A stretch of DNA of 64,000 nucleotides from an uncultured Candidatus Saccharibacteria bacterium. Its GTDB lineage: Bacteria > Patescibacteriota > Minisyncoccia > Phycocordibacterales > Zambryskibacteraceae. The position numbers and the translations under genes were made by a program. Positions 6,940 to 59,750 of this stretch are shown here, in pieces. Position 1 is the first letter of the stretch. Each line of letters begins with the position of its first letter. The DNA lies in assembly GCA_964582295.1 (NCBI GenBank), contig CAZOQP010000002.1, forward strand, positions 8,563 to 72,562. Reading direction: 5' to 3'. Under the pieces are notes generated by a model that made no database searches, was not told where the DNA came from, and saw only the letters and a program-made list of their open reading frames with translations.

Positions 6940-6947
6940 TAAATAAC

Positions 6948-6976
6948 AAAACCCCCAGGATTATCCTGGGGGTTTT
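6948..6976. terminator. bidirectional intrinsic terminator hairpin between convergent genes
   Basis: aaaacccccagga-ttat-cctgggggtttt: perfect 13-bp stem flanked by an A-run and a T-run. Confidence 0.6.
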
Positions 6977-6981
6977 GTTAT

Positions 6982-7143
6982 TTATTCCTGCCGCGCTTCC
7001 TCCCTTGCGTGCTCCGTGTCATTCTTTGCGTCGTCGGCTTCTTTGCGTGCTGCCTCGGCCTCATCTTCTTTCTCGTCCGCTATCACTTCGCGCGCCGCTT
7101 GTATATCTTCTGTGGCCTCCTCTATATTATCTTTGTCTGCCAT
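6982..7143 (-). CDS. unannotated small highly acidic protein (53 aa, predicted helical)
   Basis: ATG at 7143 with GAGGAAG about 11 nt upstream; stop TAA at 6984-6982. Translation: MADKDNIEEATEDIQAAREVIADEKEDEAEAARKEADDAKNDTEHAREEARQE. Shorter than the 60-aa cutoff of the ORF track. The plus-strand ORFs listed here are antisense and low-complexity. Confidence 0.3.
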   Translation of the reverse strand: MADKDNIEEATEDIQAAREVIADEKEDEAEAARKEADDAKNDTEHAREEARQE

Positions 7144-8691: not shown

Positions 8692-8815
8692 GATTTTCTT
8701 CTTTAATTTACTTGTAATGATTACGGGTATTGCAGAGTTTACCTCTGTATAACGTATGACGAGGTAACAATTTAAAAATTACGGATGAGAGCATGGGGGA
8801 ACACATTAAAAAAGC

Positions 8816-8852
8816 CCCGTACCAGAGCAAAGCTCGGTACGGGGCTTTTTTA
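8816..8852. terminator. bidirectional intrinsic terminator
   Basis: aaaaaagccccgtacc-agagcaaagctc-ggtacggggctttttt. Confidence 0.55.
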
Positions 8853-8862
8853 ATTCTGTTTA

Positions 8863-17502: not shown

Positions 17503-17574
17503 CTCCCCGGGTAGGATTCGAACCTACGACCAATCGCTTAACAGGCGACTGCGCTACCGCTGCGCCACCGGGGA
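17503..17574 (-). tRNA. tRNA-Asn (anticodon GTT)
   Basis: Cloverleaf folds by hand. Acceptor stem TCCCCGG/CCGGGGA, D-arm GCGC-AGCGGTA-GCGC, anticodon loop CTGTTAA, T-arm GTAGG-TTCGAAT-CCTAC, discriminator G. Confidence 0.85.
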
Positions 17575-17943: not shown

Positions 17944-18168
17944 ATGCTTATACATGTGAAGGTTTCAGCAGGTGAGAAAAGGGAAAAATTTGAAGAAATT
18001 TCGGATACTCGTTTTGTGATATCTGTGAAGGAAAAAGCGGAAAGGAACATGGCCAACAGGCGCGTGATGGCCATACTGGCCGGACATTTCAAGGTTCCTG
18101 AAAGATCCGTAAGGGTAATAAGTGGTCACCATTCACCGTCTAAAATTATTGAAATAATAGGCAAATGA
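17944..18168 (+). CDS. DUF167 (YggU-like) protein
   Basis: 74 aa; ...VKVSAGEKREKFEEI...FVISVKEKAERNMANRRVMAILAGHFKV pattern characteristic of the YggU family. Confidence 0.55.
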   Translation: MLIHVKVSAGEKREKFEEISDTRFVISVKEKAERNMANRRVMAILAGHFKVPERSVRVISGHHSPSKIIEIIGK

Positions 18169-18180
18169 TATAATCGGGGT

Positions 18181-18591
18181 ATGAAATATTCATCATATGT
18201 GAAGGGGATGGAGAATACGCCGGCCATAGAAGCTTATTTAGATAAACGTTTGAAAGCGCTCCGGAAAGTGGTGAAGGATCCGGCGGCGCATGCGCAGGTG
18301 GAGATAGGGAAGACTACAAATCATCACAAGTCGGGAGACATTTTCCGGGCGGAAATAAAATTGATGATGTCCGGCAAGGAATTTTATGCGGCAGTGGAAA
18401 AGGATGACCTTTACGCGGCCATAGATGAAATGAGGGACGAGATAATCGCGGAGGTTAAAAAATTCAAAGGAAAATCTGAAACAGCTTTTCGTCGCGGCGC
18501 ACGAAGAATGAAAAGTATTTTGAAAGGGCTTGATCCTCGAGATTACAACTACAAGGATTGGAAGTTTTGGGAGAAGTGGCGGAGGAAATAA
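18181..18591 (+). CDS. hpf: ribosome hibernation promoting factor (HPF/RaiA family, long form)
   Basis: ...AIEAYLDKRLKALRKVV...DIFRAEIKLMMSGKEFYAAVEKDDLYAAIDEMRDEI... matches the sigma-54-modulation/S30AE fold signature. Confidence 0.8.
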   Translation: MKYSSYVKGMENTPAIEAYLDKRLKALRKVVKDPAAHAQVEIGKTTNHHKSGDIFRAEIKLMMSGKEFYAAVEKDDLYAAIDEMRDEIIAEVKKFKGKSETAFRRGARRMKSILKGLDPRDYNYKDWKFWEKWRRK

Positions 18592-18595
18592 AAAG

Positions 18596-18737
18596 TCGCT
18601 CGGGGTGTTTCTTGAAAATGAAAAGTACGCACTCGAACACGAAAAGAGACCACTCCGGGGCGTTTGCCCAAGTCTTAGTCTCTTTTCGTGTTCGAGTGCT
18701 TTACTCAAAAAACATTTTCAGGAAACACCCCTCGCTC
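18596..18737. repeat. intergenic palindromic repeat element, family member A (142 bp, bounded by TCGCTC hexamers)
   Basis: Starts 5 nt after the hpf stop. Outer arms gggtgtttcttgaaaatg / cattttcaggaaacaccc; inner perfect 22-bp arms gcactcgaacacgaaaagagac / gtctcttttcgtgttcgagtgc. Shares GAAAAG..GTACGCA with members B and D. Confidence 0.7.
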
Positions 18738-18764
18738 CTAAGTTGAGAAAAAATATAAACAAAG

Positions 18765-18806
18765 AGGCCGCGCGACGGATGTCGCGCGGCCTTACTGTTT
18801 TTTTTA
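18765..18806. terminator. intrinsic terminator (bidirectional)
   Basis: aggccgcgcgac-ggat-gtcgcgcggcct followed by tactgtttttttt. Confidence 0.6.
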
Positions 18807-19274
18807 TCCTATTTTCAATTGAACTCTCTCCTCTTTGCTCAATCTACTCTCCATTAGCTCGGCCGCAGTTTGAGCGAGCTCCGGGTTCCTTGCAATGACA
18901 GCTGCAAAGCGGATTTCAGCCCAACCTCTTTGGAGTTTGCACGTGAAGTAAAAGATGAGGGTTTCTTTATGCTCTGAAGGCAGTACTTCCTCAGGCAACC
19001 GCCCGACTTCCTCCATGAGAATATGTACACCCTCGAGAGCAGTTGCAAGTAGTGGTGGATGCATATTCGCAATTACTTGCTCAAACACGAGGTTGAGACT
19101 GAGCAGGTGTTTCCGATGACGCGGATCTGCCAGGTTCTTCCAAGCTTCAAGCGCTCTGATCAGATCTTCTGAGTCGCGGTTTACCACTCCATGCCTCCGT
19201 CGGCAAAAAGTGAATGTTCGGTTCCTTGAATGTTGTAGCACCCTTTCTCTCAAATCACAACTACATAACTCCAC
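18804..19274 (-). CDS. hypothetical protein (156 aa)
   Basis: Intact ORF starting 14 nt inside the 3' end of fmt. No recognisable motif. Confidence 0.35.
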   Translation of the reverse strand: MELCSCDLRERVLQHSRNRTFTFCRRRHGVVNRDSEDLIRALEAWKNLADPRHRKHLLSLNLVFEQVIANMHPPLLATALEGVHILMEEVGRLPEEVLPSEHKETLIFYFTCKLQRGWAEIRFAAVIARNPELAQTAAELMESRLSKEERVQLKIG

Positions 19275-20109
19275 GCAAAAAGTCCTGCCACGACATTTCT
19301 TTGCGCCCTTCGGGTGTTACGCGGTCTAAAACCAGCACCCCTTCTTTTATATGGGCTTCTTTTATTTTCACCCGCACCTTGCCGTTCTTGGTGCTGTGGA
19401 AAAAATATGCCCCAGGCCATTTTTCAAAGGCGTGTATCTTTCGCAGATTTTTTATCGGCCCGTCATTCATATCCATCTCCGCATCTTCCTTTGATATTTT
19501 TTTTGTGAAAGTGGCGAGGGTGTGATCCTGCGTTTGGGCTTTGATATTTTCATCCATCCAATCGGGAATAACGGATGCGAGAAGTTTTCCGCCTTCACTC
19601 CCTAAAATTTTCTCTGCCTCCGTGTATGCGGGCGGCTCGTCTCCAAAAACAACCGCCTTTTGAGCAAGAATGGGGCCATGATCCATTTCCTCGTCTATCA
19701 AAATTATACTAACCCCCGGTTTTTCTCCGGAAAGGATAGTGCATTGTATAGGGGCCGGCCCGCGCAGTTTCGGTAAAAGAGACGGATGCACGTTCAGGGT
19801 GCCTCGGGTGGGAATATCAAATACTTCCCTGGGAATTATTTTTCCGTATGAAGCTACAACGCCAAGTTGTGGGTTATAAGCTTTAAGTTGCAATACAAAA
19901 TCCGTATCCAATTTCTGCGGCTGAAGCACCGGGATATTGTGTTTGCCAGCCCACACTTTTGCAGGCGGGGGAGTGATGGTGAGGCCGCGCCCCTGCGGAT
20001 TATCCTCGGCACAAACTATCACCACAGGAACGAAGCCCCCTTTTTCAAGTTCATTCAAAACAGGAATAGCTATTGCATCCGATCCAAAAAAAGCAAAACG
20101 TACACTCAT
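19261..20109 (-). CDS. fmt: methionyl-tRNA formyltransferase
   Basis: N-terminal MSVRFAFFGSDAIAIPVLNEL and the GTLNVHPSLLPKLRG formyltransferase motif. Start at MSVRF, which overlaps the def stop by ATGA. Confidence 0.85.
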   Translation of the reverse strand: MSVRFAFFGSDAIAIPVLNELEKGGFVPVVIVCAEDNPQGRGLTITPPPAKVWAGKHNIPVLQPQKLDTDFVLQLKAYNPQLGVVASYGKIIPREVFDIPTRGTLNVHPSLLPKLRGPAPIQCTILSGEKPGVSIILIDEEMDHGPILAQKAVVFGDEPPAYTEAEKILGSEGGKLLASVIPDWMDENIKAQTQDHTLATFTKKISKEDAEMDMNDGPIKNLRKIHAFEKWPGAYFFHSTKNGKVRVKIKEAHIKEGVLVLDRVTPEGRKEMSWQDFLRGVM

Positions 20110-20645
20110 CGCTTTTTGCTTTTTACCGGAACGGGTTTCCACTCATGAAGGTCCGAGGCCTTGTCGGTGAAAAGCACTCCGTCCAAATGGTCACTCTCAT
20201 GCTGAAATATTTGTGCCACCAGGCCGGAAGCCCCGCGGCTGAATTTTTTACCTTTTTCGTCATATGCTTCCAGTTCCACTTTGTCCGAGCGTTTCACTTT
20301 TCCGTAAAGCCAGCGCACCGAAAGACACCCCTCTTCCATGGCTTTTTTAATACGTGAGCTTCTTAGGATCTTGGGATTTATGAAAACTTCGTCCGGATAT
20401 TGCGATTTCGCTTCATCTTCATTCGCAAGAATAGCCCTTACCCGTCCGGAAACCACGAAGATACGCAGAGGCACACCTATTTGGGGCGCGGCAATGGCTA
20501 CTCCGTCGCTTTCACCCTCCAGTGCTTTTTTCATATCTTTAAGTATCTTTTGTATGCGAGAAGAGGGAATTTCCTTCACGGAAACAGGCTCCGCCTTCTG
20601 GCGGAGTACGAGGGTCTCTTCCTCCTGAAAAATCCTGGCAGGCAT
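20106..20645 (-). CDS. def: peptide deformylase
   Basis: PDF motifs GVAIAAPQIG, EGCLSV and HESDHLDG. def-fmt gene order. Confidence 0.85.
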   Translation of the reverse strand: MPARIFQEEETLVLRQKAEPVSVKEIPSSRIQKILKDMKKALEGESDGVAIAAPQIGVPLRIFVVSGRVRAILANEDEAKSQYPDEVFINPKILRSSRIKKAMEEGCLSVRWLYGKVKRSDKVELEAYDEKGKKFSRGASGLVAQIFQHESDHLDGVLFTDKASDLHEWKPVPVKSKKR

Positions 20646-20685
20646 ATATTTAAGCTTACAGGTTCTCTTCTTAAGCTGCTAGTAT

Positions 20686-22566
20686 TTACAAAAGATCTTC
20701 AGGATCCACGGAAACGGCGAATTGCGGAGGCAGGGACATGAGGCGCATTACTGTGGTTTTGTCCGGCCATTCATTTGGCACTTCTATTTTTATAAGCCCG
20801 TGAAAACGATGCAAGCGCCCGCCTGCTCTCACTTTCACAATGTGCACCGTTTCGCCGAAAAGTTCCCGCACCAGTTCACTGTCTTTGGCGGCACGCGAAG
20901 GGCTGCCTTCCCATGCAATTTTTATGAAAAGGGAAAAAGGCGGGAATGCGAATTTTCTTCTTTCATCTATCTCACGCTCAAAGAATGGCAGAAAATTCCC
21001 TTCGGCCGCTGCAGAGAAAACAGGGTTCTCCGGACTCCTTGTTTGGAATATCACTTTCTCTCTACCCAGTGCACGAATGCTTGTAAGGATTGAAAGCAGT
21101 CTTTCATTCACACGAAAATCAGGCATTCCGATAAGCGAATCTGCAGAAACGACCGCCGCTACTTCAACAGGGCTTCTCACATAACGCAAAGCCATCTCGG
21201 TGCCGATAAGGATACCTCCGCGAGTATGTAAAAAATCATCTGCTGTGCGCATGGCTTTTGCTGGTGTAGGGGCGGCATCTTTATTCAGGTGGAAAATGAA
21301 AGGGTGGGGAATAATACGGCGGAGCTCCTTTTCAATAGTTTCAACTCCAATTCCCAAAGTGGCAAGCCGCCAGCCACCGCAATGCGAACACTCGTCTTTT
21401 GCTGGGCGTTTTTCACCGCACTTGTGGCAAAGAAAAAAATGATTGGCGCTCTCGTGAAGCACTAGTGGAGCTCCGCATACCGGGCAGGAGACGACCATTT
21501 CGCAATCACTGCACACAGTGAGAGGTGCCAAGCCTTTGCGGGCGCCAAAAAGGAAAACCCTTTTCCCGGCTTCAACTGCAGAAATAATAGTGCGCTCCAA
21601 ACGGTTAGAGAATATTTTGAAGCCCTCCTCGTCACCCTCTTGCCTTACCATGGAAGAAATGGAAACATCGGCGGTAGTGGGGGAGCGCATGTTCATGTGG
21701 CCCCATTCGTTGTATTCGTTCTCTTTTACTTTGTACAAAGTCTCAACACGCAGTATCTCGCTTCCGTAAATGATGCGGGCGCAATATTCATGTGCGAGCA
21801 TTTTTGCGAATGCCCGAAAATCTAAGAAAGGACGCGAAAGAGTGTTGTATGCGCGTGAGTTCTCTCTTTCGCAGAGAACTGTTTCGGTGTCCTCGCGCAT
21901 AAGGCAAAGGTAGGGAGGAGTGGCGATGATGAGGGCGGGGTGAGTTGGGTCATCCACTATCTTCAGGCGTTTGGTGAGTTCCTTTGCATTGCGAGGCGCT
22001 GGGAAAACAACAGTGAATTCCTCAATGCCGCGCGAAAGCTCTTTGTATGCGTATTCCGCATCCTCGGCCGTCGGTACCAGAAAAAAGAATGAGCGCTTGC
22101 GGGCGAAAGTTTCGCGTATAAGAGAGCGGTATTCAGCAAAGCGCTCCTCCGAGCCTGCCTGGAATGCGCTTACGTCTGCAACAAGCGTGCATTTGGGTTC
22201 AATGGGAACGACATTTCTTTTTGCTTCAAGGACTGCTTGAGGCAAAAGAACACTCAAGATGCTTGCAGTGCTTTGAGCGGAGTATTCCGAAAATGCGTCA
22301 GCCGCACGCAGGAAGGCGCGGCTGACGCACATCTTTCCTGCTGCTCCCGTGATTTTTTTAAGTGCAAAAGGGCCGGAGCGTATTTCCATGCGGGCTTTTT
22401 CCGCAGGATGGGTTTCCACTACCAGAGCCCTTACTGTTCTTGCGCGCAGAGGCACCTTCACGATAGTACCCGGCTCTATATCCGTGCCTGAAAAATAAGT
22501 AAGGGTTTCCGCGCCGGCACCTTTGGCGAAAGTTCTTGTGAGTGGTAATACGGAGACTGTGAACAT
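20686..22566 (-). CDS. priA: primosomal protein N' (PriA) homologue with degenerate helicase ATPase motifs
   Basis: PriA-type N-terminus (VSVLPL...LTYFSGTDIEPGTIVKVPLRARTVRALVVE) and the Cys-rich zinc region CSDCEMVVSCPVCG...CHKCGEKRP...CSHCGG. The positions where GxGKT and DExH are expected read GSEERFAEY and LMREDTE instead. Confidence 0.7.
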   Translation of the reverse strand: MFTVSVLPLTRTFAKGAGAETLTYFSGTDIEPGTIVKVPLRARTVRALVVETHPAEKARMEIRSGPFALKKITGAAGKMCVSRAFLRAADAFSEYSAQSTASILSVLLPQAVLEAKRNVVPIEPKCTLVADVSAFQAGSEERFAEYRSLIRETFARKRSFFFLVPTAEDAEYAYKELSRGIEEFTVVFPAPRNAKELTKRLKIVDDPTHPALIIATPPYLCLMREDTETVLCERENSRAYNTLSRPFLDFRAFAKMLAHEYCARIIYGSEILRVETLYKVKENEYNEWGHMNMRSPTTADVSISSMVRQEGDEEGFKIFSNRLERTIISAVEAGKRVFLFGARKGLAPLTVCSDCEMVVSCPVCGAPLVLHESANHFFLCHKCGEKRPAKDECSHCGGWRLATLGIGVETIEKELRRIIPHPFIFHLNKDAAPTPAKAMRTADDFLHTRGGILIGTEMALRYVRSPVEVAAVVSADSLIGMPDFRVNERLLSILTSIRALGREKVIFQTRSPENPVFSAAAEGNFLPFFEREIDERRKFAFPPFSLFIKIAWEGSPSRAAKDSELVRELFGETVHIVKVRAGGRLHRFHGLIKIEVPNEWPDKTTVMRLMSLPPQFAVSVDPEDLL

Positions 22567-22668
22567 GGTGATAGCTTATAGCTTTTAGCTACTAGCTTCC
22601 AGCTTATTCGGGGTAAAAGAAGGATAACTGGCGGATTATTACAAAAAAGCTTAAGCTGTAGGCCACAA

Positions 22669-23682
22669 ATGGCCTTTTTTACCAAAAAACTAGGTATTGA
22701 TCTCGGCACTACGAGCGTTCTTGTGTATGTGCCGGGAAAGGGGATTATCTTGAATGAACCGTCTGTTGTGGCCGTGTCTGAAGAGGACAGGAAAATTTTG
22801 GCGATAGGTGCGGAGGCAAAAAAAATGATAGGCAAGACGCCTGAAAACATCATTGCTTATCGCCCGATGAAAGACGGAGTCATTGCGGATTATCGTGTGA
22901 CGGAAGCCATGCTCCGATATTTTATCGGCAAAGCTCTCGGTAAATTTTCATTCATAAAGCCGGATGTTTTGATATCCGTTCCCGCTGGTGTTACCTCAAC
23001 TGAAAGGCGGGCTGTCATTGAAGCGGCTGTGAAAGCGGGGGCAAAGAACGCATATGTTGTGAAAGAGCCGATCCTTGCGGCTATCGGCGCAGGTATTCCC
23101 ATTCAGGAGCCGTCGGGCCAAATGATAGTTGATATTGGCGGAGGGACGACCGACGTGGCGGTTATTTCGCTCGGCGGCATCGTGGCTTCTACGTCGGTTA
23201 AGTGTGCTGGCAATAAGATAGATGCAGCTATCACCGACCATATGAAGAAAACTTATAATCTGGCGATTGGTGATCGCACGGCGGAAAATATAAAAATAAA
23301 TATCGGCTCTGCTGTGCCGGTGGAGGAGGAACTTTCAATGCAGGTGAAAGGAAGGGATTACGTTTCGGGTTTGCCCCGCTCGGTTGAAGTGAAAACAAAT
23401 GAGGTGGTGAAGGCCATTGGGAAAGAGCTTCGCGATATGGTGAAAGCTATAAAGGATGTGCTGCAGGAAACTCCGCCAGAACTCGCTTCAGACATTATTG
23501 ATAAAGGAATAGTTATGACAGGCGGCACTTCCCAGCTTCGCCATTTGCCCGAACTCGTTTTTCGCCGCACCGGAGTGAAAGCGGTGATGGCAAAGGATGC
23601 TTTGTATTGTGTGGTGAATGGGACGGGTATAGCACTAGAGCATTTGGATGCTTATAAGAAGGCGGTGATTTCTAAAAGATAA
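22669..23682 (+). CDS. actin-like rod-shape protein, MreB family (paralogue 1, 337 aa)
   Basis: LGIDLGTTSVLVYV, NEPSVVAV, DIGGGTTDVAVISLGGIV motifs. Confidence 0.8.
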   Translation: MAFFTKKLGIDLGTTSVLVYVPGKGIILNEPSVVAVSEEDRKILAIGAEAKKMIGKTPENIIAYRPMKDGVIADYRVTEAMLRYFIGKALGKFSFIKPDVLISVPAGVTSTERRAVIEAAVKAGAKNAYVVKEPILAAIGAGIPIQEPSGQMIVDIGGGTTDVAVISLGGIVASTSVKCAGNKIDAAITDHMKKTYNLAIGDRTAENIKINIGSAVPVEEELSMQVKGRDYVSGLPRSVEVKTNEVVKAIGKELRDMVKAIKDVLQETPPELASDIIDKGIVMTGGTSQLRHLPELVFRRTGVKAVMAKDALYCVVNGTGIALEHLDAYKKAVISKR

Positions 23683-23685
23683 TTT

Positions 23686-23791
23686 TCGCTCGGGGTGATG
23701 ACGAAAAGAGTACGCATAAAAATCTGCTGATTTTTTGCTCACCCTCGCGCCGTCGCGCTGCACAGCCTCTTTTCGTCATCACTCCTCGCTC
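23686..23791. repeat. intergenic palindromic repeat element, family member B (106 bp, TCGCTC-bounded)
   Basis: Starts 4 nt after the mreB-like stop. 19-bp arms gggtgatgacgaaaagag / ctcttttcgtcatcactcc. 105/106 identical to the reverse complement of member C at 32213-32318. Confidence 0.75.
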
Positions 23792-25087: not shown

Positions 25088-25106
25088 GATTTTATAAATA
25101 GCCATT

Positions 25107-25175
25107 ACAAAGGTTTATCCTTTGGCAAAGGATAAACCTTTGTACGTAGGACAGTCCTACGTAGATTTTGATTTT
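25107..25175 (+). promoter_or_regulatory. two consecutive perfect palindromes between the DUF457 gene and frr (candidate operator and/or terminator)
   Basis: acaaaggtttatcctttg-g-caaaggataaacctttgt (18-bp perfect arms), then acgtaggac-a-gtcctacgt, then gattttgattttt. Confidence 0.3.
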
Positions 25176-28185: not shown

Positions 28186-29259
28186 ATGGCAGAACGGAAG
28201 AAATTGACGCTTAGGGAAAGAATAAGGCGGTCGCTCTCAAACGACATCGGTATTGACCTTGGGACAGCGAACACGCTGGTCTTCGTGAAAGGTCGCGGAG
28301 TCGTTATCAACGAGCCGTCGGTGGTTGCTATCAACCAGAAAACCGGAGCGGTGGTGGCGGTAGGGAAGGAAGCACGTGACATGCTTGGCCGCACGCCCGG
28401 ACACATTATCGCTGTAAGGCCGGTCGTTGATGGTGTGATATCGGACTTTGAAGTAACAGAGGAAATGATCTCCTATCTTCTTTCGCGGGCGCAGGAAGGA
28501 CACAGGAAAATGCTCGGGCCGCGCGTGGTAGTTGGGGTGCCGTCGGGTATTACGAATGTGGAGATAAGGGCCGTTCGCGATGCTTGCCAGAACGCAGGGG
28601 CTAGCGAAGTGCATATCGTGGAAGAACCAATGGCGGCGGCTATCGGCATGCGCTTACCAGTGAAAGAGCCGGTCGGAAGCATGGTGATAGATATAGGCGG
28701 AGGTACTACGGACATCGCCGTCATTTCTCTTTCAGGTATCGTGCGTGCAAAAAATATACGTCTTGCGGGAGATGCTTTCAATGAGAACATCGCATCTTAT
28801 GTGCGGAATGAATTCAAAATATTAGTAGGAGAAAAAACGGCGGAGGAAGTGAAAATGTCTATCGGCTCGGTGCTTCCGGATGGGGAGTCGGCTGAAGCAG
28901 TGGTAAGAGGGAGGGATTTGGTGACCGGTTTACCGAGAGAGGTTGCTGTGACGGATGCGGATATCCGCGAGGCCATCGGTATTTCAGTCGGCAGCATAAT
29001 AGAAGGTGCGCGGGAAGTTTTGGAAACCACTCCGCCTGAAATTCTTTCGGACATCATGCACAGGGGAGTGTATCTTGCGGGCGGCGGTGCTATCTTCAAA
29101 GGATTGCCGGAACTTTTAGAGCATGAATTGAAGATACCGGTTCATGTGCCGCCTGACCCTCTGCTTGCAGTAGTTCGTGGCACCGCCGCCATCCTTGACG
29201 ATATTGATTACTGGAAAGATATTTTAATCGTCAACGAAGATGATATATCGGCCTCATAA
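28186..29259 (+). CDS. mreB: rod shape-determining protein MreB (paralogue 2, heads the mreBCD-mrdA operon)
   Basis: IGIDLGTANTLVFV, NEPSVVAI, DIGGGTTDIAVISLSGIV motifs. Followed by mreC. Confidence 0.9.
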   Translation: MAERKKLTLRERIRRSLSNDIGIDLGTANTLVFVKGRGVVINEPSVVAINQKTGAVVAVGKEARDMLGRTPGHIIAVRPVVDGVISDFEVTEEMISYLLSRAQEGHRKMLGPRVVVGVPSGITNVEIRAVRDACQNAGASEVHIVEEPMAAAIGMRLPVKEPVGSMVIDIGGGTTDIAVISLSGIVRAKNIRLAGDAFNENIASYVRNEFKILVGEKTAEEVKMSIGSVLPDGESAEAVVRGRDLVTGLPREVAVTDADIREAIGISVGSIIEGAREVLETTPPEILSDIMHRGVYLAGGGAIFKGLPELLEHELKIPVHVPPDPLLAVVRGTAAILDDIDYWKDILIVNEDDISAS

Positions 29260-30265: not shown

Positions 30266-32002
30266 ATGAGGTTTTCCTTCAAAAATTTATTCAAAAAGCG
30301 TGGTCCCGGCCACGAAATTGCTCCGGAAGAAATATTGGCGGACGCTTCAAACCTCATCCATACAGACACCGGTAACATGGAGGGACACCTTATTCTTCCT
30401 ATAGAAAGGTCCTCATACGTTCTCCTTGTTGCTGTTCTTGTGTTTTTGACCCTCTTTGCGACAGTGCGCCTTTTTAATCTTCAGGTAGTGCGCGGGCAGG
30501 AGCTCGCTAAAAGGAGCGCCACCAACTCTTTGGATAAAACGATTGTCTTTGCGAACCGCGGGCTTATTTTTGACAGAACAGGTGAAGTGGTGGCAGGAAA
30601 TGCACCAGCTCAAAGATGGAGTGAAAGAAAATATTTGCCTCTCCCCGGTCTTTCGGTTATGGTCGGATATGTGGGATATCCGAAATCAGATTCAAGCGGC
30701 AATTTATACGACACAGCACTTGCCGGACGCGATGGGCTTGAAGAATATTTTGATGATGTACTTGCCGGAAGGAACGGCACTCTCATACGCGAAACAAATG
30801 CTTTGGGGGAGCTTGTTTCTGAAAGCACTGTGGAGAATCCGCGTGATGGGGTGAACATTACTCTCTCAATAGATGCGAAAGTTACCAGCCAGCTTTTCAC
30901 AGAACTCAAGGCACTTGCGGAGGAAAGAGGGTACGCGGGCGGAGCTGGTATTGTGATTGATATAGAGACCGGAGAAGTACTCGCTCTCACTTCATATCCT
31001 GAATACGACCACCAGGTGATGGTAGATGGAAAAGATAACAATGCCATTTCGGCATTTCTCGGGAATAAGAATAATCCTTTCCTTGACCGTGCATCCCAGG
31101 GTCTTTACATCCCGGGTTCTATCATGAAGCCCTACATGGCAGTAGGTGCGCTTGAGGAGAATATTGTTGATCCGCTTAAAAATTTCATGGCGAACGGAGA
31201 GATACGTGTTCCTAATCCTTATGATCCTAAGAACCCGACTATTTTCAAAGACTGGAAAGTGCACGGAATGGTTGATATGCGGAGGGCGCTTGCTGTTTCT
31301 TCAAACGTTTATTTTTTCACAATTGGTGCCGGCTATGAGGGGCAGAGGGGATTAGGTATTTCCAAGATAGAAGAATATATGCGCATGTTCGGATTCGGAG
31401 AAAAAACTGGTATTGAAATAGATGGAGAGGAAGAGGGTAACGTGCCGAGCCCCGAATGGAAGGAGGAAACTTTTCCGGATGATACTACCTGGCGCCTCGG
31501 AGATACTTACAATAGTTCTATCGGGCAATACGGATTTTCGATAACACCCATTCAGGCCGTACGGGCGACAGCGGCCCTCGCGAACGGCGGGTTTTTAGTG
31601 ACACCTACTCTTATAAAAGATGACGAGCAAAATCAGGATCTCCAAAAAGTGCTTTCCCAAAAAGGGGTGGAGTTAAAAAGAGAAAAAGAAACTGTTCCTG
31701 TGGCCCGTGAAAATATTCGCATAGTGCAGGAGGGAATGAGAAAGGCCGTGCTTGAGGGAACCGCTTCCGGATTGAATATTCCTGCCGTCGCCGTGGCCGC
31801 CAAGACGGGTACTGCAGAGCTTGGTGTTACCAAGCAGGCCGTCAACTCATGGGTTATGGGATATTTCCCTTATCAAAATCCGCGTTATGCATTTGCTATT
31901 GCCATGGAAAAGGGGAGCCGCTCAAACACTGTGGGTGCCACTTATGCCATGCGCCGCCTTCTTGAATGGATGGCTATTTATGCGCCGGAATATTTAAAAT
32001 AA
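30266..32002 (+). CDS. mrdA: penicillin-binding protein 2 (class B transpeptidase)
   Basis: SxxK (GSIMKP), SxN (SSNVYF) and KTGTA motifs. Start at MRFSF (30266); the longer ORF from 30020 overlaps mreD out of frame. Confidence 0.85.
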   Translation: MRFSFKNLFKKRGPGHEIAPEEILADASNLIHTDTGNMEGHLILPIERSSYVLLVAVLVFLTLFATVRLFNLQVVRGQELAKRSATNSLDKTIVFANRGLIFDRTGEVVAGNAPAQRWSERKYLPLPGLSVMVGYVGYPKSDSSGNLYDTALAGRDGLEEYFDDVLAGRNGTLIRETNALGELVSESTVENPRDGVNITLSIDAKVTSQLFTELKALAEERGYAGGAGIVIDIETGEVLALTSYPEYDHQVMVDGKDNNAISAFLGNKNNPFLDRASQGLYIPGSIMKPYMAVGALEENIVDPLKNFMANGEIRVPNPYDPKNPTIFKDWKVHGMVDMRRALAVSSNVYFFTIGAGYEGQRGLGISKIEEYMRMFGFGEKTGIEIDGEEEGNVPSPEWKEETFPDDTTWRLGDTYNSSIGQYGFSITPIQAVRATAALANGGFLVTPTLIKDDEQNQDLQKVLSQKGVELKREKETVPVARENIRIVQEGMRKAVLEGTASGLNIPAVAVAAKTGTAELGVTKQAVNSWVMGYFPYQNPRYAFAIAMEKGSRSNTVGATYAMRRLLEWMAIYAPEYLK

Positions 32003-32006
32003 AAAG

Positions 32007-32194
32007 TCGCTCAGATAACACCCTTTTTCAAACAGCTGCCGCTCCGGCGGTTACGAAATCATAGTCGTCTCATAACGTAAAATGGGCAACTCGTCGGCAC
32101 AATCCGCCTCCTCAAACACTCCCATTTTCCTACTCAACTCCTTGATTTCTAAAACCACCTCCCGCTTGTGTGAAAAAGGGTATTATCTTCGCTC
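32007..32194. repeat. intergenic palindromic repeat element, family member C1 (188 bp, TCGCTC-bounded)
   Basis: Starts 4 nt after the mrdA stop. Terminal arms agataacaccctttttcaaacag / ctt(g)tgtgaaaaagggtattatct. Starts aaaagtcgctc like member A. Confidence 0.6.
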
Positions 32195-32212
32195 CTTAAG
32201 GATTATAACTTA

Positions 32213-32318
32213 GAGCGAGGGGTGATGACGAAAAGAGGCTGTGCAGCGCGACGGCGCGAGGGTGAGCAAAAAATCAGCAGATTTTTATGCGTACTCTTTT
32301 CGTCATCACCCCGAGCGA
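32213..32318. repeat. intergenic palindromic repeat element, family member C (inverted copy of B; GAGCGA-bounded)
   Basis: 105/106 identical to the reverse complement of 23686-23791. Flanks outside the hexamers are unrelated between the two copies. Lies 18 nt after member C1. Confidence 0.75.
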
Positions 32319-32399
32319 CTACTGTTTGAAAAATGCTGCATTTTGAGCGGTCTTCATTGACAGGACGCCCCTTTACTCTATAATGCCGAGGAATTAAAT

Positions 32400-32867
32400 A
32401 TGAAGGAAGAAGGCACATACCTCACCAAAGAAAAATTTGATGAGTTCAAGACGGAACTCGATCACCTTACTCATGTAAGGCGCAAAGAAGTTGCTGAAAG
32501 TTTGGAATACGCAAAAGCTTTGGGAGATCTTTCGGAGAATGCAGAGTATCACGAAGCCCGCGATATGCAGGCGTCAATTGAAGACAGGATAGCCAAACTG
32601 GAGCAGATATTGAAATCCGCCGTCATTATAAAAGACCACGATACTGCCAAGGCATCTATTGGCTCACAGGTCACCATCCGCAAGGAAGGCGAAAAAGAAA
32701 AGAAGGTCTTCACTTTGGTGAGCCCGGAAGAAGCCGATCCGCGCGAAGGCAAGATCTCTATAAAATCTCCATTAGGCGGGGCAATGTTTGAAAAGAAGAA
32801 AGGGGAATCTTTTTCCTTCAAAACTCCGTCAGGCATCATGACCTACGAAATTCTTGGTATAGAATAG
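32400..32867 (+). CDS. greA: transcription elongation factor GreA
   Basis: N-terminal coiled coil (...LTHVRRKEVAESLEYAKALGDLSENAEYHEARD...) and C-terminal FKBP-like domain. 155 aa. Confidence 0.9.
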   Translation: MKEEGTYLTKEKFDEFKTELDHLTHVRRKEVAESLEYAKALGDLSENAEYHEARDMQASIEDRIAKLEQILKSAVIIKDHDTAKASIGSQVTIRKEGEKEKKVFTLVSPEEADPREGKISIKSPLGGAMFEKKKGESFSFKTPSGIMTYEILGIE

Positions 32868-47359: not shown

Positions 47360-50107
47360 GTGAGAATGGAAACAGCTCCTACAAAAGAGCGGATGCTCGT
47401 GGCTGAAGAAGAGCTTGCGTATTTGCGCGGGCAATTTGAAAAGCAAAAACAAGAGAATATTTCTTCCGCAAAAATGGGAGACGAAAAAACTCTCTCTCAT
47501 GCAGTAGTGCGTTCCTATGCGGAAGCTCACCCGAGAGAACTTTGGGGTGCTGGGCACACTGCGGCTGAAACAGTAATTGCGGGGCTAGCTTTAAAGATCG
47601 CGCCTGAACCTCATGATGTTCGCATGGAAGAGCTTTACAGGGTTATTCAGACGAAAGGAATATACACAGCTCTTAAGGTGGTAGAGAAAATGAATGACCC
47701 TCATTTGGAGGACGATTTCCACCGCTTCGTGGCTGAGCTTGTGCGTGGAGCACATGGCGTAAAGGGACTAAAGGAAAAAACAGAGCTTTCCCGTTCTGTA
47801 TCGCGAGTACTTTTTGAGATATCCCTTTCACGGAATAAAGATGAAGGAGATAAGGGGGGCTCTGGGCAGGGGCTTCGCGAGCTTGTCTCAAAAATGGAGA
47901 GCATTTATGCCATTCTTCAGGGTCATGAGAAAGACAGGGAAACTATAGTTTTGGAACTTGCAAATTCTGCGGGAAATTCGGAACTGGTTTTTTATGCGGC
48001 GGTTCCCGGAACATGGGCAAACCGTTTTGAAAATGAGATACGTACTGTATATCCGGAAGCGCGGGTGAACGAACGACCGGATGATTACAATGTTTTTGCT
48101 CAAGGCGGCCACATCGCGCTTTCATCTGCAAAGCTCTCTCGTTCTGCAGCTTTGCCGCTTAAAACATTTGAGACTTTTGAGCACGACCCCATGAATCTCC
48201 TAATTGGTGCTTTCGGAAAACTTCATCATGAAAATGAAGGGGCATTAGTTCAGATAGTGGTGGGCGCAGCTTCATCTTCTTTTGAAAAAACAGTGCGAGG
48301 TAAAAAAAGTGCCATAGAAAAAGGTGCTGACCCGAAGGAAGTGCTTGCCGAAAGGGGAGTATTAAGTGAGATATTCGGCATGTTCGGAGATATGTTCAAA
48401 AATTCGGGTGGAAAAAAGAAAGAGGAGAAAGAAAGTTCACTTCAAAAACATGCAGCAGTTCTACAAAAACTTGAGAGTAAATTGGCAAGGCCTATAAGCA
48501 CTGTGTGGATGCGCGTCGCGGCATCCGCCGCGACGCGCGAGCGCGCGGAAGCCATTGGACGCGACATTGAATCCTCTTTCAGACAATTCAGCGAACCCAC
48601 AGGCAATGAAATAATTTTCAAAAAAGTGCGCCCAAGGGAAATGCGCCGCGCCGTGAGGGCCATTTCCTTTCGGTTGCCGTCTTTTGGCGACGCTTTGTAT
48701 TTGAACACTGCTGAACTTGCAACCATTTTCCATTTTGAAAGCGCCGGCCTTACAGCATCCCCAACCCTCAAAACAGCGCAGTCTGTTTCCCATGCCGCAC
48801 CCCTTGATGTTCCAAAAGAGGGAATACTTATGGGGGTGAACGGAACGGCCCCCGATCAGAAAGAAATTTTCCTTGCAGACACAGATCGCCTGCGCCATTT
48901 GTATGTCATAGGCCAGACAGGAACCGGAAAATCAACGCTTCTTAAAAACATAGTTATTCAGGATGTGGAGCGCGGTCATGGCGTGTGCTTCATAGACCCG
49001 CATGGTTCGGATATTGAAGAAATACTTTCCCGTATTCCGCCTGAACGCCAAAAAGATGTCATTTATTTTGACCCAGCCAATCTTGAATATCCGATAGCCC
49101 TCAACATGCTTGAATACGATGCACGTTTTCCTGAACAAAAAACTTTCGTAGTGAACGAGCTCTTCGCAATATTCCAGAAATTGTACGGAGCTGTCCCTGA
49201 ATCAATGGGGCCCATGTTTGAGCAGTATTTCAGGAATGCTACTCTGCTTACTATTGAAGATCCTGAATCCGGCTCAACACTTCTTCATGTGTCACGAGTG
49301 CTTGCAGACAAGGCGTATCGCGAACATAAACTATCCAGATGCAAAAACCCAGTAGTGGTTTCTTTCTGGAAGGAAATAGCTGCAAAAGCGGGAGGGGAGG
49401 CCTCACTTGCGAATATCGTTCCCTATATCACTTCTAAATTTGATGTCTTCCTTGCGAACGACTATATGCGCCCTATCATCTCTCAAGAAAAGTCGTCTCT
49501 TCGTTTCCGCGAGATAATAGATGAAAAGAAAATTCTTTTAGTGAACCTTTCCAAGGGCCGCCTGGGCGAGATAAATAGCAATCTTCTTGGTCTTATTATC
49601 GTTGGCAAACTTCTGATGGCCGCTCTTTCACGTGTTGACGTTTCAGCAGATACGCGAAATCCTTTCCATTTGGTGATAGATGAATTCCAGAATGTTACGA
49701 CAGATTCCCTAGCGACTATTTTTTCCGAGGCCAGGAAATACGCGCTGTCTCTTACAGTCGCACATCAATACATCGCCCAACTGACGGAAAATATCAGCAA
49801 AGCGGTTTTTGGCAACGTGGGAACACTGGCGATCTTCCGAGTAGGCACGGATGATGCAGAGTATTTGGAAAAACAATTATCTCCGGCTTTTGGGGCGGCA
49901 GACCTGGCGAATCTTCCGAACGGCATGGCGGCATTGAAAATATTAGCGAACGGCATACCCCTTCCGCCTTTTGATATTCATACCTTCGGATTTGCGAAAG
50001 GGAATAGCGACGGGCAGGCGCTCAAAGAAGCATCTGCACATAAATATGGCACTCCACGAGAGGAGGTTGATAAGATCATAAACTCGTCTTTCACCCCTGC
50101 TTCTTAA
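47360..50107 (+). CDS. large soluble P-loop NTPase of the FtsK/HerA/TraG-VirD4-VirB4 superfamily with an unrecognised ~500-aa N-terminal region
   Basis: Walker A YVIGQTGTGKSTLL at about residue 520, CFIDPHG, Walker B HLVIDEFQNV, then ...SLTVAHQYIAQL... No TM segments. N-terminal half has no motif I can assign. Confidence 0.6.
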   Translation: MRMETAPTKERMLVAEEELAYLRGQFEKQKQENISSAKMGDEKTLSHAVVRSYAEAHPRELWGAGHTAAETVIAGLALKIAPEPHDVRMEELYRVIQTKGIYTALKVVEKMNDPHLEDDFHRFVAELVRGAHGVKGLKEKTELSRSVSRVLFEISLSRNKDEGDKGGSGQGLRELVSKMESIYAILQGHEKDRETIVLELANSAGNSELVFYAAVPGTWANRFENEIRTVYPEARVNERPDDYNVFAQGGHIALSSAKLSRSAALPLKTFETFEHDPMNLLIGAFGKLHHENEGALVQIVVGAASSSFEKTVRGKKSAIEKGADPKEVLAERGVLSEIFGMFGDMFKNSGGKKKEEKESSLQKHAAVLQKLESKLARPISTVWMRVAASAATRERAEAIGRDIESSFRQFSEPTGNEIIFKKVRPREMRRAVRAISFRLPSFGDALYLNTAELATIFHFESAGLTASPTLKTAQSVSHAAPLDVPKEGILMGVNGTAPDQKEIFLADTDRLRHLYVIGQTGTGKSTLLKNIVIQDVERGHGVCFIDPHGSDIEEILSRIPPERQKDVIYFDPANLEYPIALNMLEYDARFPEQKTFVVNELFAIFQKLYGAVPESMGPMFEQYFRNATLLTIEDPESGSTLLHVSRVLADKAYREHKLSRCKNPVVVSFWKEIAAKAGGEASLANIVPYITSKFDVFLANDYMRPIISQEKSSLRFREIIDEKKILLVNLSKGRLGEINSNLLGLIIVGKLLMAALSRVDVSADTRNPFHLVIDEFQNVTTDSLATIFSEARKYALSLTVAHQYIAQLTENISKAVFGNVGTLAIFRVGTDDAEYLEKQLSPAFGAADLANLPNGMAALKILANGIPLPPFDIHTFGFAKGNSDGQALKEASAHKYGTPREEVDKIINSSFTPAS

Positions 50108-50112
50108 AGAAT

Positions 50113-50150
50113 TGTGTCATTCCAACATTCTCAAGAATGTTGGAATGACA
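50113..50150. repeat. perfect 18-bp-arm palindrome immediately after the ATPase stop codon
   Basis: gtgtcattccaacattct-ca-agaatgttggaatgacac. No T-run on the plus strand. Confidence 0.5.
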
Positions 50151-50160
50151 CTTGTATACA

Positions 50161-52160: not shown

Positions 52161-52267
52161 GCGCTCGGCGTGTTGCCGAAAAGGGTACGCATAAAAATCT
52201 GCTGATTTTTTGCTCACTCTCAAACCGTCGTTTTCCGAGAGCCCCTTTTCGGCAGCACCCCTCGCTT
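52161..52267. repeat. intergenic palindromic repeat element, family member D (about 107 bp, CGCTC/TCGCT-bounded)
   Basis: Starts 5 nt after the rmuC stop. The central 35 nt (gtacgcataaaaatctgctgattttttgctcac) are identical to member B. The arms differ from B but remain mutually complementary (ggcgtgttgccgaaaaggg / cccttttcggcagcacccc). Confidence 0.7.
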
Positions 52268-52731: not shown

Positions 52732-52816
52732 TAGTCTCCATAAATGCATAATCCCCAACCGAAGTAGGGGATTATGCATTTATATTAACGACAGAACTCT
52801 CTTTTTCTTACAATCA

Positions 52817-59701: not shown

Positions 59702-59712
59702 AACTAATTAAC

Positions 59713-59750
59713 AAAAAACCGCCCCCGTAAAAAGGGGCGGTTTTTTGTTT
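59713..59750. terminator. bidirectional intrinsic terminator between convergent genes
   Basis: aaaaaa-ccgcccc-gtaaaaa-ggggcgg-tttttt. Confidence 0.6.

Follow-up and report, generated by a model that had tools for sequence, protein, structure and literature searches.

The near-identical palindromes B and C and a diverged third copy, D, are probably copies of a small non-autonomous mobile DNA element that belongs to a large superfamily in Paceibacteria (Patescibacteria/CPR). We regard it as a new family: a superfamily of small mobile hairpin repeats, MITE/REP-like in kind and so far undescribed. The copies are discrete and non-coding, occur in multiple copies in many genomes, and are present in some and absent from other close relatives. 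They also insert into one another, and their fold is kept by compensatory change. The analysis covered 64 kb of the source genome, hereafter the window, together with 8-20-kb pieces of other genomes (the related loci, given here by L numbers), in which genes were called crudely as longest ORFs.

In the window lies a run of housekeeping genes from a Paceibacteria (Minisyncoccia) chromosome; the taxon names follow the closest MreB homologues. The genes include priA, mreB, holB-like, frr, rseP-like and proS-like genes, a second mreB, mreC, PBP2, greA, lysS, an mraZ-mraW-ftsI-mur cluster, purL, rmuC, rplU, recR, dnaB and cysS, among others, and B, C and D are all intergenic. Two tRNA genes were found, at 17503 and 46226, neither adjoining B, C or D. 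Pfam scans of the 61 long ORFs of the window identified no transposase, integrase, reverse transcriptase or HUH domain and no match to Y1_Tnp. The claim of an earlier, sequence-only reading that the window carries no transposase thus holds as far as these scans show, about 17 small ORFs having no Pfam match.

Copy B occupies 23686-23791 of the forward strand (to 23792 with an extra T) and begins 3 nt past the mreB stop codon (23680-23682). Direct TCGCTC hexamers at 23686-23691 and 23786-23791, the second followed by T, enclose two 19-nt arms, a 5' arm at 23692-23710 and a 3' arm at 23767-23785, which in B and C read GGGGTGATGACGAAAAGAG / CTCTTTTCGTCATCACYCC. Two small hairpins lie between the arms. 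The first, H1 (23714-23738), consists of GCA, a bulged U, AAAAAUC, the loop UGCU, GAUUUUU and UGC; in DNA letters its inner hairpin in B and C is AAAAATC-TGCT-GATTTTT. The second, H2 (23747-23758), is GCGC, the loop CGUC and GCGC, or GCGC-CGTC-GCGC as DNA. Copy C, on the reverse strand at 32213-32318 (from 32212 with the extra base), is B inverted with one base different. Its arms lie at 32219-32237 and 32294-32312, its H1 at 32266-32290 and its H2 at 32246-32257. It sits within the unusually long spacer between PBP2, which ends at 32002, and greA, which starts at 32400, and is antisense to both of these neighbours.

Much of the sequence-only description of B and C stands. The two are reverse complements with a single difference, a T/C mismatch at 23782 in the 3' arm when B is aligned to the reverse complement of C, and the 19-nt arms and inner hairpin are as it had described them. 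It had also called the sequence outside the hexamers unrelated. The flanks indeed cannot be aligned beyond a few bases, but identity runs one base past the hexamer (TCGCTC...TCGCTCT, 106/107) and for about another 10 nt of the 3' flank a looser resemblance persists; the repeat finder reports a match of 116 nt at 96%. The ends of each element, located by extending the palindrome, are good to within a few bases, which weakens the analysis of target duplications. Within its 106-107 bp the element holds no ORF, as had been said; the sole overlapping frame, of 71 aa, runs into greA and is not conserved.

B and C are thus real, but they are not the only elements of the window: a third copy, D, two further hairpins, A and E, and H2 itself had been missed. 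Copy D (52161-52267, forward strand) is about 85% identical and begins 4 nt past the rmuC stop codon. It is bounded by GCGCTC (52161-52166) and TCGCTT (52262-52267), with arms at 52167-52185 and 52243-52261, H1 at 52189-52213 and H2 at 52222-52233, the last reading AAAC-CGTC-GTTT and extended by CTCTC/GAGAG. A 33-nt stretch, GTACGCATAAAAATCTGCTGATTTTTTGCTCAC, is unchanged in D. Its arms differ from those of B by paired changes, A-T to C-G and A-T to G-C, and in H2 the change from GCGC/GCGC to AAAC/GTTT is likewise compensatory. Over the 19 nt the arms pair perfectly in C, at 18/19 positions in B and at 17/19 in D. The arm pattern has five matches in the window, the fifth belonging to D, against 0.02 expected by chance. 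Each of the three copies is much more stably folded than shuffled versions (z = -5.3 to -6.6); B, as RNA, reaches -47.3 kcal/mol (z = -6.6). The covariance model described below finds only these three in the window: B with 68 bits (E = 8e-16), C with 68.9 bits (E = 4.5e-16) and D with 81 bits (E = 1.7e-19).

Element A (18596-18737, forward strand) reads TCGCTC-GGGGTGTTTCTTGAAAATG ... CATTTTCAGGAAACACCCC-TCGCTC and begins 4 nt past the hpf stop codon (18589-18591). It keeps GTACGCA...TGC, with a 22-bp hairpin in place of the H1 stem-loop and without H2. Element E (32007-32194, forward strand) begins 4 nt past the PBP2 stop codon and ends 18 nt from C. It has arms of about 18 bp (AGATAACACCCTTTTTCA / TGAAAAAGGGTATTATCT), direct TCGCTC bounds and an unrelated interior of 140 nt without the H1/H2 core; a third, partial copy of its arm lies beyond C, at 32322-32349.

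Direct TCGCTC bounds all five hairpins of the window (A-E), while ten control hexamers bound none. It is not a generally enriched word, 40 occurrences being found in the window against 36 expected; only its pairing around hairpins is special. The flanking repeat of the window copies is always TCGCTC (GCGCTC/TCGCTT in D) and always in one orientation, and a duplication that varies from copy to copy was not seen among them. The orientation of the hexamer relative to the core is constant in the window, L044, L052, L076, L077 and L091, and a loosely conserved YTAAGTT lies 3' of it. In L044 the hexamer lies inside a further outer stem, a 6-bp helix closing outside TCGCTC. This fixed orientation and pairing rule out a random target duplication and leave two readings: TCGCTC belongs to the element itself, or it is a strict target with a set orientation. 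The sequence-only reading had taken the hexamers as mere boundaries, a view that does not survive, since the same oriented hexamer flanks every family member in this lineage. Its proposal that aligned copies might reveal a target-site duplication likewise led to the fixed, oriented TCGCTC and to no ordinary duplication. No unambiguous target duplication or pre-insertion sequence can be defined for B, C and D because their flanks are too diverged. A scan of metagenomes with a 32-mer specific to the window subfamily returned only one further locus, seen twice, which is the L077 locus.

Comparison with relatives in which MreB is 93-94% identical and gene order is kept shows that the copies come and go. 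The orthologous sites, sought in close relatives as had been suggested, are empty in L084, L085, L096 and L098. The mreB-holB gap measures 174 nt in the window and 23 nt in L084; the PBP2-greA gap 397 nt in the window, 47 nt in L084 and 44 nt in L085; and the rmuC-rplU gap 203 nt in the window, 56 nt in L096 and 40 nt in L098. Other relatives carry other hairpins at these sites: a different long hairpin in L082 and L085, three nested hairpins in L087/L089, and superfamily members with different arms and a different H1 stem behind mreB in L091 and behind rmuC in L095. The same three intergenic sites thus hold different family members in several related species. In the lineage of the window, 9 of 10 elements point the same way as the gene behind whose stop codon they stand. 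Such recurrent site use and co-orientation could mean either selection at the RNA level or strict targeting. A Logan contig of the same organism ends 32 nt past mreB, inside B, as repeats are apt to cause in short-read assembly.

The family extends far beyond these relatives. A scan of genome collections with the core 23-mer ATAAAAATCTGCTGATTTTTTGC found at least 80 loci in about 39 Patescibacteria assemblies. The taxa among the matches listed are Paceibacterota, Nomura-, Taylor- and Kaiserbacteria and MAGs labelled Saccharibacteria, all of them Patescibacteria, and more than 35 of the listed loci lie in a single MAG, CAZFHL01. Because the scan used the exact 23-mer as its seed and at least 80 loci were listed, the figures for copy number and taxonomic breadth are minimum values. 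Among 2.9 million viral contigs none carries the 23-mer, and an origin from phage was rejected on this ground. A covariance model built from 38 copies detected 116 copies in 0.55 Mb (80 loci listed), about 30 of them without the exact 23-mer, which removes the ascertainment bias on H1. A search for further copies had been suggested, and D and these loci supply them. The central claim of the sequence-only reading, a discrete, non-coding and recently copied element mobilised in trans, is supported by the occurrence of copies at unrelated loci, the empty sites, the dozens of copies elsewhere and the assembly break in B.

Wherever it occurs, the 23-mer sits in a long stem with the same apex. The stems, 20-50 bp long and lineage-specific in sequence, are unrelated across genomes and yet always pair. 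The apex is a conserved three-way junction of H1 and H2. H1, the most conserved module of the superfamily, has a consensus of 3 bp, a bulged U, seven mostly A/U pairs and a UGCU tetraloop; 9 of its 10 pairs covary, and loop and bulge are conserved. H2, a covarying 4-bp stem that UGC...GCA often lengthens, is capped by a conserved C(A)GUC loop. In variants such as GGA-U-AUUUUUU[UGCU]AAAAAAU-UCC, GGA-U-AAAUUCC[UGCU]GGAAUUU-UCC and CUGGCAU[UGCU]AUGCCAG, the UGCU loop and the bulged U stay while the letters of the H1 stem change. Across the alignment 90.8% of cells are paired, compared with 42-53% when the registers are slid by 1-3 columns. Double-sided changes affect 625 cells against 153 in shuffles, both sides change in 29 of 30 pairs, and none of 500 shuffles reaches the observed values. 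The covariation supporting a common fold is very strong.

The fold matched no family of known RNAs in Rfam. At gathering score, Rfam matched only tRNAs in the window, the element alone and nine related loci, and at E up to 10 only chance miRNA-like hairpins were added. Hammerhead, twister and other ribozyme cores, the SRP Alu domain, Y RNA and a tRNA-like gene were considered from the sequence and rejected on mismatched conserved nucleotides, on the lack of an ARAGORN tRNA call there and on the multi-copy occurrence of the element. The TIGR arrays of CPR organisms are tandem arrays (PMC12045711), whereas the elements described here are dispersed and single. In the literature searched we found no description of such repeats in these phyla and no occurrence of the H1 sequence.

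Such strong covariation, with loops and bulge conserved across distant lineages, would suit a functional structured RNA. The element would then be a cis element in mRNA 3' ends (a stabiliser, a processing site or an unconventional terminator) or a multi-copy small RNA, with H1/H2 binding a protein and mobility only the means of its spread. Position speaks for this as well: A, B, D and E and the elements of L077, L085, L087, L091 and L095 all start 0-9 nt past a stop codon in sense, the same intergenic sites are occupied in several species by different members, and a terminator-like hairpin follows the element in relatives linked to tRNA genes. A functional RNA is expected to tolerate G-U pairs, not A-C pairs, and to keep one orientation relative to transcription, and the stems of the superfamily show neither. 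When the 5' arm was compared with the reverse complement of the 3' arm, using one representative per family, 50 transition mismatches would be G-U on the core strand and 43 on the other, so that neither strand has an excess. A 2:1 G-U excess in a first count disappeared with this direct arm alignment and one representative per family; it had come from about 30 near-identical copies of one MAG and from the bias of minimum-free-energy folding. Young copies within CAZFHL01 have 55 A-C and 23 G-U mismatches. H1 and H2 exchange Watson-Crick pairs, and one-sided wobble intermediates are almost absent.

Nor is orientation biased across all families. Of the copies flanked by co-directional genes, 28 are sense and 20 antisense; a further 18 have convergent and 11 divergent neighbours, and C, as noted, is antisense on both sides. 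The lack of a G-U excess together with the unbiased orientation argues for a mobile element at the DNA level over a classical RNA gene. A DNA palindrome whose arms are kept complementary by copying, or by selection on both strands, fits these data better than a classical RNA does. Other observations point the same way: no conserved promoter is present, the identity of B and C ends at the element ends, Rfam holds no matching family, and canonical terminators directly adjoin element A, so that the hairpin is not needed for termination there. We consider a functional RNA an unlikely explanation. In the window lineage the 9 of 10 sense elements make an RNA-level effect, or an orientation-specific insertion, possible.

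If the element is mobile DNA, as we favour, one rival model would be an ordinary MITE, that is, an internally deleted derivative of a DDE-type IS whose transposase binds the terminal inverted repeats, the hairpin being a by-product. The MITE-like character proposed from the sequence holds in so far as the elements are small, have inverted-repeat arms and no ORF, and occur as many dispersed copies that are polymorphic between relatives. It fails in that, across genomes, conservation peaks in the covarying apical core and is lowest at the variable termini, the opposite of what an element recognised by its terminal repeats would show. Some subfamilies do show flanks of the expected kind. Several copies of the main family, with arms GTGAATTACGAAACTC...GAGTTTCGTAATTCAC, are flanked by AT-rich direct repeats of 6-8 nt (TTTAAAA, TTCTTTA, TTAATTT, GATTTT and ATACTAAT); among 89 distinct copies, 5 have repeats of at least 6 nt, where shuffled pairings predict 0.7. 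Family F1 of CAZFHL01 is flanked by TA and has entered F2 elements at one and the same TA within their H1, in either orientation. Variable repeats of 6-8 bp are seen, however, only in subfamilies other than that of the window, whose copies are bounded by the one fixed, oriented hexamer. The 20-21-nt repeats of the tRNA-linked members described below are too long for a staggered-cut duplication.

A parent element did not turn up either: neither an IS with matching ends, nor a longer element that shares these ends, nor a transposase was identified in the window or the roughly 0.55 Mb of related loci, and a search of these loci for two half-elements flanking an ORF gave nothing convincing. The suggestion that a transposase gene with ends GGGGTG...CACCCC might be found accordingly gains no support from these loci, and the arm sequence is in any case lineage-specific. 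All-against-all clustering of the ORFs in the 80 listed loci yielded only housekeeping families (ABC-F, IleRS, pilin, IF-2, DnaK, RF2 and CCA-adding enzyme), and a protein associated with the copies was rejected. Taken as a whole, an ordinary MITE seems to us quite improbable.

A further type of insertion is found beside tRNA genes, where GC-rich variants lie 2-43 nt downstream of the gene on the opposite strand. Read on the tRNA strand, the tRNA is followed by a terminator, a diverged copy of its 3' end in inverted orientation, H2', H1' and an exact repeat of the tRNA 3' end. This repeat starts in the T-loop and measures 21 nt for tRNA-Ser (L014/L050) and 20 nt for tRNA-Val (L060). In L014, L050 and L060 an exact direct repeat of the tRNA 3' end, 20-21 nt long, is thus present at both junctions; the window copies have no such repeat. 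The tRNA-linked elements are 150-190 nt long and form tandem units in L050, L028 and L040. This layout is expected if a small circle carrying the tRNA 3'-end sequence S and an inverted copy of it integrates at S. A systematic test for resemblance between arms and flanks gave no signal outside the tRNA-linked subfamily, and an apparent derivation of the 5' arm of B from the last 20 nt of mreB (14/19 by eye) was therefore rejected as chance.

These features recall a miniature integrative cassette that enters by site-specific recombination, as integron attC sites and the folded attP of the CTX phage do. In this scheme the folded single strand would be the substrate of a tyrosine recombinase, perhaps one of the host Xer proteins, and strands would cross over within TCGCTC or a tRNA T-loop; the scheme is a specific version of the mobile-element reading that we prefer. 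The flanking TCGCTC core is fixed and oriented, as such a cassette would have it. An element joined end to end would read CATCACCCC-TCGCTC-GGGGTGATG, with inverted arms around an asymmetric 6-bp spacer, a layout that, judged from the sequence, would be that of a tyrosine-recombinase core site. The stems of the main family have a conserved internal bubble between two helices, UCUUUCUU against UGCGACGA, which resembles the unpaired spacer of attC. Integration of small circles at tRNA 3' ends would suit both the S...rc(S)-core-S layout and the tandem copies, and cassette exchange would produce the different members seen at one site in related species. The empty site of L096, TAAATAGCTCTCTAATTT, resembles the 5' flank, one core and the 3' flank. 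Against this, no integrase lies near any copy in the window or the related loci, the consensus boxes of attC are absent, and the flanks of A, B, C and E are unlike the arms, which leaves a target without obvious recombinase-binding arms. The variable AT-rich duplications at several main-family copies also fit transposition better. We view a cassette of this exact type as possible but rather unlikely.

The various end signatures, namely TCGCTC, AT-rich repeats of 6-8 bp, TA and tRNA 3' ends, are not easily fitted to one mechanism. They may reflect different partner enzymes that share a structural cofactor site, or one shape-specific enzyme with lineage-specific targets.

The elements share features with several known systems. 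Bacterial MITEs, including Correia/CREE of Neisseria and RUP, have been reviewed (PMC3184786). Like these, the elements described here are about 100-150 bp long, non-coding, dispersed in intergenic regions and polymorphic between relatives; they have inverted-repeat arms, would form long hairpins if transcribed, and in some relatives of the window element have TA or short AT-rich flanking repeats. Unlike these, their arms differ completely between lineages around a conserved, covarying three-way junction, no parent IS is known, and the fixed, oriented TCGCTC stands in place of a target duplication. ERIC elements have a conserved central part and sit in transcribed intergenic regions. With ERIC/IRU of enterobacteria and bcr1 of the Bacillus cereus group (about 127-155 bp), our elements have in common an imperfect palindrome found in both orientations. 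A published drawing of bcr1 shows a cruciform that has two independent stem-loops (PMC3184786), a shape close to the H1/H2 junction. In contrast to ERIC/IRU and bcr1, the elements occur in a different phylum, show no sequence similarity to them and have far more variable stems. To our knowledge, neither ERIC nor bcr1 inserts beside tRNA 3' ends with repeats of 20 nt.

REP/REPIN-RAYT systems and the ends of IS200/IS605 elements are non-autonomous hairpins that are recognised by shape in single-stranded DNA and have imperfect stems with an extrahelical base. IS608 and RAYT insert in an orientation-specific way beside a short fixed sequence and make no classical target duplication. The elements described here would resemble them in the hairpin, the extrahelical base and the oriented insertion at a fixed short sequence. 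Unlike REP/REPIN, they have no GTAG-type 5' tetranucleotide, and H1 and H2 are unrelated to each other and are not two inverted REP units. Nor is a RAYT or TnpA gene found in the window or the related loci, and the elements are longer, with a branched apex. With attC of integrons and attP of CTX they share the conservation of structure over sequence and a long hairpin, imperfectly paired, that contains an internal bubble and ends in a variable or branched tip; like attC, they lie directly behind the stop codon of the preceding gene in fixed orientation. They differ from attC in that the arms contain no R'' RYYYAAC or R' GTTRRRY boxes, arrays beside intI are absent, and the neighbours are core housekeeping genes in conserved synteny rather than cassettes. 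In working mode the family is most like REP/REPIN-RAYT or the folded DNA of attC/CTX, and in appearance most like ERIC, bcr1 and the Correia MITEs. At least one defining feature of each known system fails, which places it among small palindromic repeats and outside every named family.

We infer that the unit that moves is the whole hairpin. An enzyme acting in trans would recognise the folded core rather than the termini, most likely on single-stranded DNA; such recognition would account for stems that may vary freely provided they still pair and that carry no strand-specific G-U signature. Covariation by itself fits folded DNA and RNA alike. The paired TCGCTC may be the short core at which strands cross over or are cleaved when the element inserts in a site- and orientation-specific way, and an end-to-end junction would read arm'-TCGCTC-arm, like a lox or dif core site. 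No candidate for the mobilising enzyme lies near any copy in the window or the related loci. Where the hairpin stands behind a stop codon it is probably transcribed in the 3' UTR, which we would regard as a side effect and not as the family's reason to exist. A bolder version, which we put forward as an improbable one, is that the H1/H2 junction is the recognition module of a single-strand- or shape-specific enzyme that integrates folded DNA circles of 100-190 nt at short cores. The cores would be TCGCTC behind stop codons or the tRNA T-loop, and the lineage-specific stems would mimic or present the crossover site. Candidates for it would be tyrosine recombinases and HUH nucleases, perhaps including a housekeeping enzyme of the host like Xer.

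The genomes of CPR/Patescibacteria are very small and, by the usual account, contain little mobile DNA. The family reaches dozens of copies in one small genome, nests within itself, breaks short-read assemblies and marks core genes and tRNA genes at their 3' ends. With its conserved core and free arms it is built the opposite way to a textbook MITE, which points to recognition by shape. The covariance model and the 23-mer provide a handle for finding the enzyme, for annotating repeats in MAGs and for tests at mRNA 3' ends. If the forms linked to tRNA genes and to TCGCTC use site-specific recombination of folded DNA, the attC/CTX paradigm would be extended to a new phylum and to elements without cargo. 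Should the integration of folded circles prove true, no smaller class of site-specific integrative elements would be known, and CPR bacteria would have a genome-shaping system of their own.

Element A (18596-18737), a hairpin between direct copies of the hexamer TCGCTC with outer arms GGGGTGTTTCTTGAAAATG/CATTTTCAGGAAACACCCC, carries within it a perfect 22-bp hairpin (18629-18650 / 18678-18699). The inner hairpin lies between GTACGCA and TGC, at the position of H1, one of the two small hairpins of the conserved apical core, and its stem has ACGAAAAGAG in common with the arms of B, the copy of the mobile hairpin element at 23686-23791. Element A looks like one family member nested within another. 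In the MAG CAZFHL01, hairpins of family F1 sit, in both orientations, at one same TA inside H1 of family F2 hairpins (loci L005, L016, L022, L027, L055, L073, L074 and L080). In some of these copies just one half of the F2 host survives, either the left or the right, an indication that dispersed copies have recombined with one another. In the mreB-holB spacer of a relative (L087/L089, 5088-5358), where the window has B, three hairpins are nested within one another, and each of them has TCGCT-like motifs at its boundaries.

The spacer between PBP2 and greA (32003-32399) is 397 nt long, compared with 44-47 nt in relatives, and consists of piled-up palindromic elements. Element E (32007-32194), another TCGCTC-bounded hairpin, is followed after 18 nt by the inverted element copy C (32213-32318), and then by a partial copy of the E arm with GAGCG (32322-32349), the third copy of that arm. 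The ORF called on the minus strand of this spacer (32203-32418) is probably spurious. In some relatives a DoxX-family gene lies between PBP2 and greA (L082, 19524-19970; L090, from 20754; L091, 19581-20027), at the site of elements E and C in the window. The spacer is a variable spot within the lineage.

GC-rich relatives of the element are found a short distance downstream of genes for tRNA-Ser, -Val, -Leu, -Ile and -Ala (L014, 3343-3600; L050, 2453-2900; L060, 2990-3238; L028, 2800-3103 and 5680-5965; L040, 193-1000), some of them arranged in tandem. They lie between direct repeats, exact or decayed, that copy the tRNA 3' end from the T-loop onward, and their stem is made from an inverted copy of the same tRNA's 3' end.

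At gene ends the window carries short palindromes, perfect or nearly so, with arms of 15-25 bp and loops of 1-12 nt (6940-6984, 8805-8854, 18752-18805, 25106-25144, 50114-50151, 52740-52783 and 59710-59749). In several of them a T-run stands on each side, the pattern of bidirectional intrinsic terminators. They are unrelated to the element represented by B, C and D (52161-52267).

Up to ~20 kb the GC skew stays around zero or below it, and from ~22 kb onward it is clearly positive. Most genes are on the minus strand as far as 22.6 kb, a point between priA and mreB, where the orientation turns to plus. This switch near 18000-23000 may correspond to a replication origin region, or may just be coding-strand bias. 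The window encodes two MreB paralogues (22669-23682 and 28186-29259) at a distance of 4.5 kb, with mreC and PBP2 behind the second; this arrangement is kept in all relatives examined. A 915-aa ORF (47360-50107) has weak matches to TraG/VirD4/TrwB-type coupling proteins and HerA-like ATPases; it is conserved beside yqeY-rmuC in the relatives L095 and L098.

A 5058-nt Logan contig from SRR6868922 (L081) encodes an MreB identical to that of the window and ends within copy B, 32 nt past the mreB stop codon. Hairpin repeats of this kind fragment short-read assemblies of such genomes.
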